Source: Parcubacteria group bacterium (GTDB lineage: Bacteria; Patescibacteriota; Minisyncoccia; UBA6257; UBA11618). From it: a stretch of 64,000 nt of DNA. Shown here piece by piece: positions 47,244 through 55,248 of the stretch; within the stretch, counting starts at the first letter, position 1; each line of letters opens with the position of its first letter. The notes below the pieces were generated by a model. The model saw only the letters and a program-made list of their open reading frames with translations, was not told the DNA's origin and ran no database searches. The translations under genes and the position numbers were made by a program. The stretch is taken from assembly GCA_943357895.1 (NCBI GenBank), contig CALRGO010000001.1:140042-204041 (forward strand). Direction: 5' to 3'.

Positions 47244-48527
47244 ATGCCATTCAAAAAATATATTCTTGCGATAGTGACGCTAACGGCCATTCTCCCCGTA
47301 CTCGCGTTCGCGTTCGATGCAGAGACTCCACCCCCTCCGGTAAAGATCGGTGATGTGTGGTGGGTATATGAGCGCAAAGGTGAGTTTTGGGAACCTCGCG
47401 AAGCGACCCCCGCCGAAGCGGTAGCTTTGAACCCCGCGCGACCGGTTCCGCCAGCTCTTATTCCGCCACCGCCGCAACCATTCGTTCCGCCGGCACGCCC
47501 TACCCCACTACTCCCTCCTCCTGAGTCTCCGAGATTCCGTACGCCAGACCCTACTGACGCTGCAGCGGTTGCCGCGCGTGCAAAAGCTTTAGAGGATTTA
47601 AAAAGGATCGGCCCGGGACTATTGCGGGTTAATGGTATTCCCCCTACGCCTCTCATAGTTATTCGGCATACGCACCCCGCAGACCCGATTCGGATTGGTC
47701 TTTTCGGTAGGGATATGACCCCAATTCCGGTGCGACCTGTCGCTCCCCGTCCGGGAGTATGGAATGATTTGAATGGATTATTAAATTCGGAGAGTCCTTT
47801 TCTGACGCAACCTCCGCCGCCATCCAGTGGCCCGAGCGCGGGAAATCTTGGTGGGCCGGGTACGGGCGGATCATCTGACCCTTCCTCATTCGCAAATTGG
47901 CAGAATTGGTTCGGTTCGTTGGGGAGCGCTACGTTCCAGTTTAATCAGACAGTAGCGACTTCGGGTATCTGGCCTATTTTGAATATGCAGATGGTGAATC
48001 CTTCATTATATGGATTTTCCCTTAATTTTAACGCTCCGCCACCCGCAAATATTACGTACGACGTATGGATGCAGCGTCATGGTAGGGTCCGTCTTGGTAT
48101 TCCAGGCGCTGATCTTTTTATTCAGTATTCGGATTCTAACGGGGACGGCGCGGTTGATACGTATAAGTTCTATAAAATTAATCCGGACGGGACGTTAGGC
48201 GAAGAGATGAGTCCTCAGGCATTTTTCGATTACGGTATTAATATGGGGTATTGGGAGATTAACCCCATTACCGGAAAGCCTGTAACTAATCCCAATCAGG
48301 AAGCGCCGATAGCTATTACCCGCTGCGAGGAGAAAACAAGAAACGGAAAGAAATATTATGCCTGTTACGACTCTAAAGGGAATTTGGTGGTTGAGGCGGA
48401 AAGCCCGCGCGCAGTTGGCGTTGTTACGGCGAATCCTAACGGACCCTTCATGTTTTATCCGGGCGCGTTGCCGGGTTTCGGTATTGTTCCTATGCCCGCA
48501 CTACCGCCTCCGCAGGTACGGCCGTAA
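47244..48527 (+). CDS. Secreted proline-rich hypothetical protein, paralog A.
   Basis: Signal peptide MPFKKYILAIVTLTAILPVLAFA. ..ATPAEAVALNPARPVP.. is shared with the next gene. Confidence 0.6.
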   Translation: MPFKKYILAIVTLTAILPVLAFAFDAETPPPPVKIGDVWWVYERKGEFWEPREATPAEAVALNPARPVPPALIPPPPQPFVPPARPTPLLPPPESPRFRTPDPTDAAAVAARAKALEDLKRIGPGLLRVNGIPPTPLIVIRHTHPADPIRIGLFGRDMTPIPVRPVAPRPGVWNDLNGLLNSESPFLTQPPPPSSGPSAGNLGGPGTGGSSDPSSFANWQNWFGSLGSATFQFNQTVATSGIWPILNMQMVNPSLYGFSLNFNAPPPANITYDVWMQRHGRVRLGIPGADLFIQYSDSNGDGAVDTYKFYKINPDGTLGEEMSPQAFFDYGINMGYWEINPITGKPVTNPNQEAPIAITRCEEKTRNGKKYYACYDSKGNLVVEAESPRAVGVVTANPNGPFMFYPGALPGFGIVPMPALPPPQVRP

Positions 48528-48534
48528 CAGTTAC

Positions 48535-49836
48535 ATGTCATTCAAAAAATATATTCTTGCGATATGCGCGTTGACGGCGATTGTTCCCGCGCTTGCGTTT
48601 GCGGTTGAGCCAGCAGTCTTGCCGCCCATCCGTTTTGAGATATACGAAGGCGTTCTATGGAGATATGTACTGAATACTGAAGGTACTGCGTACGATGCGG
48701 ATCGCCCCGCAACCCCCGCCGAAGCGGCAGCTTTGAACCCCGCACGGCCGGTTCCAGCTCCGGCGACTCCCGTTCCGCCAGTTCTTATACCAACAGCTCC
48801 GCCAGTCGGCCTCCCACGGACTAATTTAACGCCGCCGTTACTTGTGGCACCGCTACCTTCGACCGTAGTTTCGGCAGGAGTTTCGTGCGCATTAAATACG
48901 TCATGGGAGTGGTATCAGGGTACGTATTATAACGCTGGTGAGATATATATTTGCAGGTATCAAGGGGGCGCGCCTGTGTATTACCCTAAATATCCTCCAG
49001 GGTTATCGTTTAATATTCCCCGTGAAAACGACGCTTTCAGGAATATAGCCTTTAATCCCGCCGCAGTCCGGTTTGATACGGCAACCGGCCGTTTCGTAAT
49101 ACCCGACGTTTCGCGTTTTGATATGGCCGAAATACGGCGGCAGATGAACGCGGGCTTGATAACGATGCCTCCCGTTACGTTACCTAATGGGACGATTGTC
49201 CCCGGTAGGCCGCTCCCTGCAGATTTTTTTAGGATTTATTTCGAAGGTAATGCTAATTTTCATGTTTTCATAGGCGGTGAGGAGATTTCCATGCCGCGGT
49301 ATGTGGAGCCTAGGCGGCCGGTAGTTAGGCCAACGAGGCCTAATAGTAATCCTTTCCTTCCTACTGACCCGCGGTTTTTCCAGTCGGAGTCGGGGACTTT
49401 GACGAATATCGGGGCGCCCAATACCGGCCCGAGCGGCGCGGGTCCGGGCCCGAGTGCTGGTGATTTGCCGGGGGCAAGCGGCCTTCCAGGGGCAAGTCAT
49501 GATCCGGGAAATAATCTTGGTTTCGATATCCCTCCTCTCCCGATACCGATTATTACGTGGAATAGTCCGGTTCGCCCGCCTATTTACCAAATCTATGAGA
49601 ATGGTCGGAACCTCACCTGGATGCTGGTTGAAAACGGTGAAAGATTCTTTTTTTCGATGGGCGATTATTTGCCCGCGGGCAGGCCGGATGGAATTTTCGA
49701 GATCTATATTACGAGGATGGTACCTAATACCGCTTCTTCCGTGCCGGGGGCATTGAGGCCTGCGGAACGTTTTAATAGTTTTGAAGAATACCAACGGTAT
49801 GTAGAGAGTCATAGACCGCCGGCAACAAGAAGATAG
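48535..49836 (+). CDS. Secreted proline-rich hypothetical protein, paralog B.
   Basis: Signal peptide MSFKKYILAICALTAIVPALAFA. The first 27 nt are nearly identical to paralog A. Confidence 0.6.
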   Translation: MSFKKYILAICALTAIVPALAFAVEPAVLPPIRFEIYEGVLWRYVLNTEGTAYDADRPATPAEAAALNPARPVPAPATPVPPVLIPTAPPVGLPRTNLTPPLLVAPLPSTVVSAGVSCALNTSWEWYQGTYYNAGEIYICRYQGGAPVYYPKYPPGLSFNIPRENDAFRNIAFNPAAVRFDTATGRFVIPDVSRFDMAEIRRQMNAGLITMPPVTLPNGTIVPGRPLPADFFRIYFEGNANFHVFIGGEEISMPRYVEPRRPVVRPTRPNSNPFLPTDPRFFQSESGTLTNIGAPNTGPSGAGPGPSAGDLPGASGLPGASHDPGNNLGFDIPPLPIPIITWNSPVRPPIYQIYENGRNLTWMLVENGERFFFSMGDYLPAGRPDGIFEIYITRMVPNTASSVPGALRPAERFNSFEEYQRYVESHRPPATRR

Positions 49837-54193: not shown

Positions 54194-54195
54194 TT

Positions 54196-55248
54196 ATGAG
54201 TTTAATTCAAAGAATATTTTTAGGAGGGATGGCGTTATTTTTCTTAACGCCCTTCTCTGTCTTCGCCGAGCCACCGCGCGAGGCGCAGGATCTATTTGCC
54301 GATCCCGATCTCTACCGCCGTGCCATGGAAGAAAACGCTCGTTTACGTCCGGCTACTATTCCTTCTCCTGTACCCATACCTGCATCTTTATCATCTGCCG
54401 CCGATAGGGCTCGGGAAGTAGAAAAGATACGCGCCGCTATGGATGCTGCCATGAAGCTTGCCGAAAAAATAAAGGCCATGGAGTCGTCGCGTGCCGGCTC
54501 TGCAGATCCTGTAACGTTCCCCATTCATCTTGATTGCTCGAAATATACTGGCGCTGCGCGCGAAATGTGCCTTAAGGCGCGCGTCGAGCCTAACGAGCAT
54601 GAGCGTTCGCATTACCTTAATTCCGTATGCCGGCAAGCGTATGCGGAGGGGAGGAGAGGGAATTGCATCCATATGGGGTGGGATGCTAACGGCAATGCTA
54701 TTATGACGTGGATAGACGAGCCCGCAGGGACGATCCCCGGTCTCATTGCTTCCAACTGTACACCTTCGTTTTTTAGGTCATGTCACCGTTATAGTACCTA
54801 TTTTTTGCAGCCTGGAACACCTGGTCCCCAGAAATGGGATAATGTTTCATATCTCTTTGACGAATGGGGTGCGTATAATGTCGGCGGTCGCGAGCGCCTA
54901 GACAAGGCGTTAAAGGGAGAAAAGCCTGACTTGATGATAAATATCGTGGAGGGCCCTATGGATTTCGTGGTAATTGCGGCAAGTATTGCCCAGTACCAGC
55001 AGACGACCGCCTTGGCTAATTTTCAAAATCAGCAGTTCAGGGACTTTATACGCAAGCAAATAGAGAATTCCATGGCTATCGTGCGTCAGGCATACGAAGC
55101 GCAGGCTGCGGGGAGGGCTTTCGTTGGTCAAACGGGGGGGCATACTCGTGCTATCTATGAGCAATTCTTGCGAAGTCCGCAGGCTCAATTACTCCGGCAG
55201 ATGTATGGCGACGCGTGGTTCGATAGGACGTTTAATATCGATTTTTGA
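54196..55248 (+). CDS. Secreted hypothetical protein, Cys-containing.
   Basis: AGAGGAAAAA RBS. Signal peptide MSLIQRIFLGGMALFFLTPFSVFA. Confidence 0.55.
   Translation: MSLIQRIFLGGMALFFLTPFSVFAEPPREAQDLFADPDLYRRAMEENARLRPATIPSPVPIPASLSSAADRAREVEKIRAAMDAAMKLAEKIKAMESSRAGSADPVTFPIHLDCSKYTGAAREMCLKARVEPNEHERSHYLNSVCRQAYAEGRRGNCIHMGWDANGNAIMTWIDEPAGTIPGLIASNCTPSFFRSCHRYSTYFLQPGTPGPQKWDNVSYLFDEWGAYNVGGRERLDKALKGEKPDLMINIVEGPMDFVVIAASIAQYQQTTALANFQNQQFRDFIRKQIENSMAIVRQAYEAQAAGRAFVGQTGGHTRAIYEQFLRSPQAQLLRQMYGDAWFDRTFNIDF

Follow-up and report, generated by a model that had tools for sequence, protein, structure and literature searches.

The stretch analysed here (the window) is 64,000 nucleotides long and comes from contig CALRGO010000001.1 of a Parcubacteria group bacterium. 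At positions 47244 to 55248 it carries the seven long plus-strand open reading frames (ORFs) that a first-pass annotation had listed, here called G1 to G7, and all seven appear to encode exported proteins. The run had been described as co-directional, but a small minus-strand gene, Gs (50040-50225), divides the seven genes into two and five; the real layout is G1-G2, then Gs on the opposite strand, then G3-G7. Tight packing was observed as described, with G3 to G7 spaced by gaps or overlaps of 2 to 32 nt. The single operon that had been proposed resolves into at least two units, since the divergent Gs between them has its own promoter and terminator. The cluster had also been placed immediately upstream of the ribosomal-protein genes; one further gene, G8, intervenes before infA and the ribosomal genes. 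The features of the locus are the following.

47244-48527, plus strand: G1, 427 aa, 16% Pro, 2 Cys in the mature part; ORF with predicted signal peptide MPFKKYILAIVTLTAILPVLAFA/F (the slash marks the cut)
48535-49836, plus strand: G2, 433 aa, 14.5% Pro; ORF with predicted signal peptide
50011 to 49993, minus strand: terminator-like site of Gs, a hairpin and T-run downstream of the gene, CCCGACCTCACCCGTCGGG CTTCTTTTTT
50040-50225, minus strand: Gs, ORF of 61 aa; a transmembrane helix at the N-terminus, then a short charged helix
50295 to 50267, minus strand: putative Gs promoter of sigma-70 type, TTGACA-17-TAGTAT, 10 of 12 matches, the best in the region
50263-51129, plus strand: G3, 288 aa, predicted exported; ORF with predicted signal peptide
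51132-52376, plus strand: G4, 414 aa, predicted exported; ORF with predicted signal peptide
52363-53229, plus strand: G5, 288 aa, 16.7% Pro; an alternative start is possible at 52381
53198-54193, plus strand: G6, 331 aa, 4 Cys in the mature part; the ORF opens at 53153
54196-55248, plus strand: G7, 350 aa; the ORF opens at 54175
55270-56895, plus strand: G8, 541 aa, a single-pass membrane protein outside the seven-gene set

Rule-based inspection of the N-termini (basic n-region, hydrophobic h-region, small residues at -3 and -1) together with hydrophobicity agrees with the earlier assignment of a Sec signal peptide to all seven proteins. Each N-terminus has a basic n-region and a hydrophobic core of 16-20 residues; the c-region that separates these from the mature protein follows the pattern P-x-x-x-(A/V)-(F/Y/Q)-A. 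Examples of the predicted cleavage sites are LPVLAFA/F, VPALAFA/V, FYPAYA/Q, PFLAFA/A, PFSVFA/Q, SFPVQA/Q and PFSVFA/E. The N-terminal segment is the sole strong hydrophobic window in each of the seven proteins; in G6 its h-region is long (20 aa), thus a signal-anchor is also possible. The Pro-rich character of several products was borne out: G1 to G5 have long PxP tracts and a Pro content of 10.4-16.7%, where 24 other proteins encoded in the window have 4.2 +/- 1.1%. The mature parts of G1 to G7 contain 2, 2, 2, 2, 2, 4 and 6 Cys respectively. An even number of closely spaced Cys in every mature protein suggests that these proteins are probably disulfide-bonded outside the cell. None of the seven reaches a Pfam or NCBIfam cut-off and none falls into a housekeeping family, as had been anticipated; the statement that no family can be recognised needs amending for G6, which has a gluzincin fold and a transitive link to Peptidase_MA_2. 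A PHROGs search with all seven proteins gave nothing above the cut-off, and sequence searches of the PDB with G1, G2, G4 and G5 gave nothing significant.

Relatives of the locus were found via G8, G6 and G7. They number about ten (designated L001 and so on) and lie in metagenome-assembled genomes (MAGs) of the Candidate Phyla Radiation (CPR) or in groundwater contigs, labelled Candidatus Harrisonbacteria, Candidatus Pacebacteria and, in one third-party assembly, 'Saccharibacteria'. Scanning metagenomes with a G7 profile added only 4 loci and scanning genomes with G8 added 2. The last-named label belongs to L003 (CAYTBX010000014.1, titled 'uncultured Candidatus Saccharibacteria'), which shares 88% DNA identity with the window over 5.4 kb of G8 and ribosomal genes. 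The next relative is labelled Candidatus Harrisonbacteria; one of the two labels is probably wrong.

The genes are syntenic rather than scattered. Pentose-phosphate genes with a split transketolase, a cluster of signal-peptide proteins, G8, infA and rpsM follow one another in every contig that is long enough, and the order from transketolase through the cluster to G8 and infA was seen in L002, L003, L005/6, L007, L008, L009, L011 and L012. Between these fixed points the content differs and has diverged far more than the flanks, and the borders are sharp. Nucleotide identity of 82-88% to close relatives ends at 48528 and resumes at 55253-55269. In the Harrisonbacteria relative, identity of 82-85% extends up to 48528, the end of G1, and is found again from 55253. 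In place of G2 to G7 this relative has a 62-aa minus-strand gene, a 439-aa G3-like protein and two further proteins, one of 493 aa (a thioredoxin domain joined to a G5 core) and one a 323-aa trypsin-like protease. In the closest relative by G8 (87% at the amino acid level) nucleotide similarity sets in precisely where G8 begins (55269), and the genes upstream of it include one that is G7-like (40%), one that is G6-like (27%) and one that is trypsin-like. In all relatives G8 bounds the variable region on its right-hand side; its identities are 87%, 82%, 71% and 53%. The identity of G7 does not track that of G8: in L003 G8 is 87% and G7 40% identical, while in L005 the values are 71% and 74%. 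Two types of G6, with either an HExxGH or an HExxH motif, combine freely with two subtypes of G7 across loci. Trypsin-like (Trypsin_2) domains were detected by Pfam in L001 (twice), L002, L003, L008 and L009.

G1 and G2 had been called tandem paralogs. This holds for their first ~70-90 residues (52% identity over 71 residues, E=2e-13), but the remaining ~340 residues are unrelated. In G2 the common leader comprises the signal peptide and ~70 residues. The motif ATPAEAxALNPARPVP is indeed common to both, at residue 54 of G1 and residue 59 of G2. The run of 27 identical nucleotides reported for their 5' ends is actually 26 (47248-47273 = 48539-48564), within a repeat of 79 nt at 77% identity (47244-47322/48535-48613); a second repeat covers 54 nt at 87% (47396-47449/48702-48755). 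A word-indexed search of 5.8 billion proteins with G1 returned only G1 itself and G2, and searches for homologues of the G2 body gave none. G1 is 78% identical to the gene at the same position in a Candidatus Harrisonbacteria MAG. From these searches G1 and G2 appear to be essentially orphans. The Harrisonbacteria gene is itself a mosaic, with a G2-like 5' end (58 of 75 residues identical, 74% nucleotide identity over 212 nt) and a G1-like body (84% over 1051 nt). PDB matches that would make G1 resemble a transcription activator-like (TAL) effector were rejected; they have E=0.004, lack a qualifying stretch and look compositional.

The sharp borders, the incongruent identities of neighbouring genes, the mosaic gene and the free combination of gene types together identify a recombining island, and on the sequence comparisons we regard the locus as position-conserved, content-variable and mosaic. 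An origin as a mobile element or prophage was considered and is not supported: there is no tRNA, Rfam hit or phage or plasmid relative, and the GC content is like that of the flanks. Two independent short-read assemblies, ERR3719149 and ERR5863101, have a contig starting shortly past Gs, at ~49921; ERR3719149 has another contig, with G1-G2, that stops at ~49948. The break thus falls within the G2/Gs intergenic region. These breaks hint at co-existing strain variants that differ on one side. In the literature searched, no cluster of this kind is described for CPR.

G6 is the protein for which an HExxH motif had been cited. The segment in question, LLHEVMGHGVGQ, holds H-E-V-M-G-H, that is HExxGH, one residue longer. 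A long N-terminal helix is followed by the catalytic domain with HEVMGH and then by PRWVKEG, which contains the third-ligand Glu. H183, E184 and H188 are invariant and E208 of PRWVKEG nearly so; this Glu sits 20 residues past the second His (about 18-20 are usual for the third zinc ligand of MA(E) gluzincins), in a column at least 90% conserved in 22 sequences. The word-indexed search returned G6 itself and one homologue at 47% identity, while an exhaustive profile search of 1.84 billion representatives found 35 proteins at E <= 1e-3. The remoter of these carry PHExxH...(L)PRWADEG, and 9 of the 22 aligned members match Peptidase_MA_2 (best E=2.9e-14), although G6 itself scores 14.2 bits against a Pfam gathering cut-off of 32.4. 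HExxGH is present in 6 of 6 members of the G6 subclade and HExxH in at least 30 remoter homologues. An AlphaFold2 (AF2) model built from the profile-search alignment has a pLDDT (predicted local distance difference test) of 92 and a pTM (predicted template modelling score) of 0.82. G6 shows the thermolysin-like catalytic fold of MA(E) gluzincins; since it has neither the HExxH pentapeptide nor a score above the Pfam threshold, we file it as a divergent relative of that group. That G6 is an active metallopeptidase is plausible, because hexapeptide HExxGH/HExxxH motifs occur in the active peptidases dipeptidyl peptidase III (DPP III; PMC5805324, PMC9820243) and TldD/E (PMC5810440). One protein from the exhaustive search, P0038 (684 aa), has a trypsin-like N-terminal half fused to a G6-like C-terminal half with HExxH...PRWADEG, a fusion that points to a functional link between the two enzyme types.

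Compared with Peptidase_MA_2 (PF13485) and the MA(E) gluzincins at large (M1, M9 collagenases, M30, M61, thermolysin M4), G6 shares H-E...H on the active-site helix and the downstream Glu in a PRWxxEG segment, and its remote homologues score on PF13485. It differs from standard members in its HExxGH motif, its ~290 mature residues, its ~45-residue N-terminal helix and its two probable disulfides, as well as in the size of its family, which with its 35 representatives is tiny. The hexapeptide zinc motif is common to G6 and DPP III (M49), a family in which HExxGH and HExxH versions stand side by side and are active (PMC5805324, PMC9820243). DPP III, however, has a second motif, EExR(K)AE(D), and a two-lobe architecture of ~700 aa, both lacking in G6, and there is no sequence similarity; DPP III is cytosolic whereas G6 is predicted to be exported. 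Judged by sequence, the likeness appears convergent and confined to the motif.

A true HExxH, overlooked in the first-pass annotation, is found in G7 (HERSH, at residue 142 of the ORF from 54175). Here an N-terminal helix precedes a Cys-rich domain with HExxH, CIHxGW and DExGAY. The word-indexed search returned nine proteins, the query and eight homologues, down to ~41% identity. In an alignment of eight of the nine, HExxH, CIHxGW, DExGAY and six Cys are invariant. Sequence and profile comparisons of G7 with Pfam and the PDB gave no significant match. G7 is thus a candidate zinc hydrolase of an undescribed family. A reading as lysozyme or lytic transglycosylase, based on 'GAYNxG', was rejected: the Asn is not invariant and there is no SLT match.

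In the relatives, a nearly identical amphipathic helix of ~35-45 residues directly follows the signal peptide in all the G6-like, G7-like and trypsin-like proteins that a single locus encodes; in L003, for example, it reads PSAPATAEQ(L/I)RQIMELETQIN.L..RRAA. For the first 50 mature residues the shuffle z has a median of 8.0 within loci (n=23) and of 0.8 between loci (n=230), whereas the catalytic bodies of the leader-sharing proteins score at noise level. An hhalign comparison of the G7 and G6 families gave an N-terminal match only (probability 93.7%, E=1.9e-7). The leaders are alike in DNA in some loci (92% over 132 nt in L005, 91.5% over 59 nt in L003) and elsewhere at the protein level only, and thus gene conversion and selection both seem to keep them alike. 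In the AF2 models the leader helices are long, reaching residue 81 in G6 and spanning residues 68-98 in G7, whose two-part leader resembles that of the L001 proteins. The same logic of a common leader and unrelated bodies is shown by G1 and G2. We considered whether the leaders dock onto the C-terminal helices of G3 to G5; the tails are kept between loci and do not co-vary with the leaders, which does not support the idea.

G3 has an Ala-rich helical region, a PPMPMPPPP tract and a conserved C-terminal K/E-rich helix. Its orthologues occur in two loci (L009_958, E=1e-12; L001_341, E=2e-9), and its C-terminal tail is kept between loci (z 9-18). Homology of G3 to GspM/PilO was rejected, the match scoring 19.7 bits against an NCBIfam cut-off of 60 (E=5e-4). 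G4 begins with a ~110-aa domain containing WCPPC; then come a beta-rich middle part, a tract rich in Pro and, at the C-terminus, a helix. It is 54% identical to L009_1827, which carries WCGPC, and Pfam-positive thioredoxin domains stand at the equivalent position in L002, L007 and L011. This is only suggestive; G4 is a candidate thiol-disulfide oxidoreductase, and its identification as a thioredoxin was dropped as unproven on the PDB and hhalign scores given below. G5 consists of a small two-Cys core domain flanked by Pro-rich linkers and then a C-terminal helix. This core shares 73% identity with the middle part of L002_9005, whose N-terminus is a Thioredoxin_2 domain; orthologues are found in four loci, those in L001, L008 and L009 being weaker. 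A K/E-rich helix ends all three proteins, and for G3 and G4 it is kept between loci within each family.

Gs is called as a gene in the NCBI, ENA and Logan assemblies, and a small minus-strand transmembrane protein sits at the equivalent position in L001, L002 and L007. The promoter core ATTTGTCAATA is kept in the window and in these three loci, followed by AGGAG and the ATG of the small gene. The Gs promoter falls within the first codons of G3, where ATTTGTCAATA supplies the 'ICQY' codons of the G3-like proteins. On the opposite strand the same letters give the TTGACA -35 box, thus one stretch of DNA would serve as both coding sequence and promoter.

CPR bacteria, or Patescibacteria, form an abundant and mostly uncultured group whose members are believed to live on other cells. 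To our knowledge the molecules of their interface with such cells are largely unknown apart from pili. The recognisable content of the island is hydrolytic, metallopeptidase-like in the window and trypsin-like in the relatives, with one candidate redox protein (G4). We lean, with somewhat better than even confidence, towards a lineage-specific, hypervariable module for exported proteolysis and surface functions in a small CPR clade, in which activity, localisation and target are deduced from sequence. All seven products would be exported by Sec and cut by signal peptidase I after the PxxxFA-type c-region, with disulfides then probably formed outside the cell, where the WCPPC domain of G4 is a likely dedicated oxidoreductase. 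G6 would act as a zinc peptidase of gluzincin fold, using HExxGH and the downstream Glu, and G7 as a second zinc hydrolase with HExxH and three probable disulfides. The leader helix of the relatives may be a common coiled-coil module for assembly or latency. G1 to G5 could form extended wall-spanning or surface-exposed spacers bearing small disulfide domains, and so present a variable outer face. Such a module might digest or remodel external proteins, of a host surface or of the environment, for a scavenging organism, and its variability would reflect selection at an interaction surface. The first-pass annotation had proposed a lineage-specific surface, adhesion or host-interaction module. 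Predicted export, restriction to the lineage and synteny agree with this, but no finding speaks for adhesion in particular. Of the classes of function, a role at the surface or in host interaction is still the most sensible.

Several observations weigh against this proteolytic reading. The window has no trypsin-like gene, nor room for one, and with only about ten loci the comparative statistics are thin. G6 lacks a canonical HExxH and may be a pseudo-enzyme; in one close homologue Asp stands in for the third ligand. For G7 no fold match was obtained and the structure model is of medium confidence only; its HExxH may not bind zinc. For G4, a profile made with its orthologue finds thioredoxins in the PDB only at E ~0.6 (E=0.46 for G4 alone), and hhalign with the true thioredoxin domains of L002 and L007 gives a probability of 3%. 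The leaders of G6 and G7 in the window are barely similar (z = 0.3, with only AQDIT/AQDLF in common), thus the leader argument rests on the relatives. That the C-terminal helices of G3 to G5 do not co-vary with the leaders weakens docking onto a scaffold. No cell-wall anchor motif was seen in the seven proteins, which is compatible with both surface-attached and released products.

Other explanations start from the same observations. The cluster might be a structural or biogenesis module of the cell envelope, wall-spanning or associated with an S-layer, pilus or secretion system, whose peptidase-like proteins process the cell's own envelope proteins or peptidoglycan peptides. G3, with its transmembrane-like N-terminus, coiled coil and weak GspM match (E=5e-4), would suit such a role, as would the leaders of several G6 and G7 relatives, which weakly match DivIC, a family of transmembrane and coiled-coil proteins. 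The cluster also always adjoins the conserved membrane protein G8, and the rest of the window is rich in genes for the envelope and for glycan biosynthesis. The GspM score, however, is far below its cut-off, one would not expect housekeeping envelope machinery to be exchanged among close relatives or to look like orphans, and the locus has no pilin, secretin, ATPase or sortase; we consider this explanation unlikely. We hold a similarly low opinion of a variable locus for surface antigens or adhesins, with the enzyme-like proteins as catalytically dead binding modules serving recognition or evasion (host attachment, avoidance of phage or predators). It would accommodate the extreme divergence, the orphans G1 and G2, the leader swapping and mosaicism, and the two independent short-read assemblies that break at the G2/Gs boundary; the non-canonical HExxGH of G6 and the Glu to Asp change in its homologue also fit. 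Yet both families hold their metal-ligand residues invariant or almost so, an argument for retained catalysis. DPP III is an active enzyme with HExxGH, and the relatives keep Pfam-detected trypsin-like domains and the thioredoxin CxxC motif.

Still less probable, in our judgement, are secreted antagonistic effectors of a polymorphic-toxin-like kind directed against competing bacteria, with Gs as immunity protein or regulator. Cassette-like variable content behind shared N-terminal modules and a small, divergent membrane protein conserved in position are what such a system would show. Against it, Pfam and NCBIfam detect no known toxin or immunity domain and none of type VI secretion (T6SS), type VII secretion (T7SS) or contact-dependent inhibition (CDI) systems; the variable parts include the N-terminal leaders rather than being C-terminal toxin tips; and there is one small gene for many 'effectors'. 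The preferred reading, an exported proteolysis and surface module, can itself be taken further. The gluzincin, the G7 hydrolase and the trypsin-like proteases of the relatives might assemble through their leader helices into a complex of several proteases bound to the cell surface. This would be a proteolytic counterpart of the cellulosome, its coiled-coil code differing from strain to strain, with which an episymbiont could open the surface of its host or feed on it; the island would diversify by cassette exchange in an arms race with hosts. We put this forward as speculation that we consider unlikely.

The comparison with cellulosomes, in which dockerin-bearing enzymes sit on scaffoldins, is instructive to a point. 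There too, several unrelated hydrolase folds carry one short non-catalytic module that varies by organism. In the island an N-terminal helix takes the place of the dockerin, no partner resembling a cohesin was identified, the helices that end G3 to G5 do not co-vary with this module, and assembly is hypothetical. Conserved 5' leaders before unrelated bodies are also found in mosaic surface loci, such as the variable lipoprotein loci of Mycoplasma, and in polymorphic-toxin cassettes; leader gene conversion or swapping and variable content at a fixed position likewise recur in the island. Unlike those loci, the island is without lipoboxes, phase-variation repeats, invertase, toxin or immunity domains, and its content is hydrolytic, with thioredoxin domains in the relatives and CxxC only in G4. 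It is a variant of known themes (secreted protease clusters, modular tagged enzymes, mosaic surface loci) and not categorically new. By the sequence searches G7 and G1 to G5 appear to belong to no described family.

As a compact and fast-evolving set of predicted exported proteins, the cluster is a testable candidate for the host interface or the extracellular feeding of CPR bacteria. For enzymology it offers a gluzincin subclade with fixed HExxGH and an undescribed Cys-rich HExxH family. For protein evolution it offers three unrelated catalytic folds with one locus-specific leader helix that appears to be kept alike by gene conversion. If the enzymes prove inactive, the locus would still mark strain-level variation of the surface.

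G8, which stands directly upstream of infA and is 53-87% conserved in all relatives, has a cytoplasmic N-domain, an acidic linker, one transmembrane helix near residue 171 and a large external domain; it has no signal peptide. Its only matches are weak, to the Pfam GlxA beta-barrel (E=0.0014) and a PHROG baseplate wedge (E=7e-4). On the other side of the cluster, a 65-aa ORF without a Pfam match lies between the halves of the split transketolase (46029-46226). The spot is empty in the Harrisonbacteria relative and holds two small ORFs (69 and 95 aa) in L007, and is thus a second, small variable spot. Over half of the window (1776-36818) is a large region for the biosynthesis of surface glycans. 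It contains glycosyltransferases of GT2 and GT1-like type, a Wzy_C O-antigen-ligase-like protein with TPR repeats, GDP-mannose dehydratase, DegT aminotransferases, a C-methyltransferase, a B12/radical-SAM enzyme, two flippases and Bac_transf. A 1068-aa protein with a PG_binding_1 domain is encoded at 1776-4982, and the GC content around this gene is 0.57. Two further genes lie between the glycan region and the island: a thioredoxin-reductase-like flavoprotein (Pyr_redox_2; 37114-38046), a few kb upstream of the island, and a 938-aa protein with two Lamin Tail Domains (39399-42215; Pfam E=2.6e-24).

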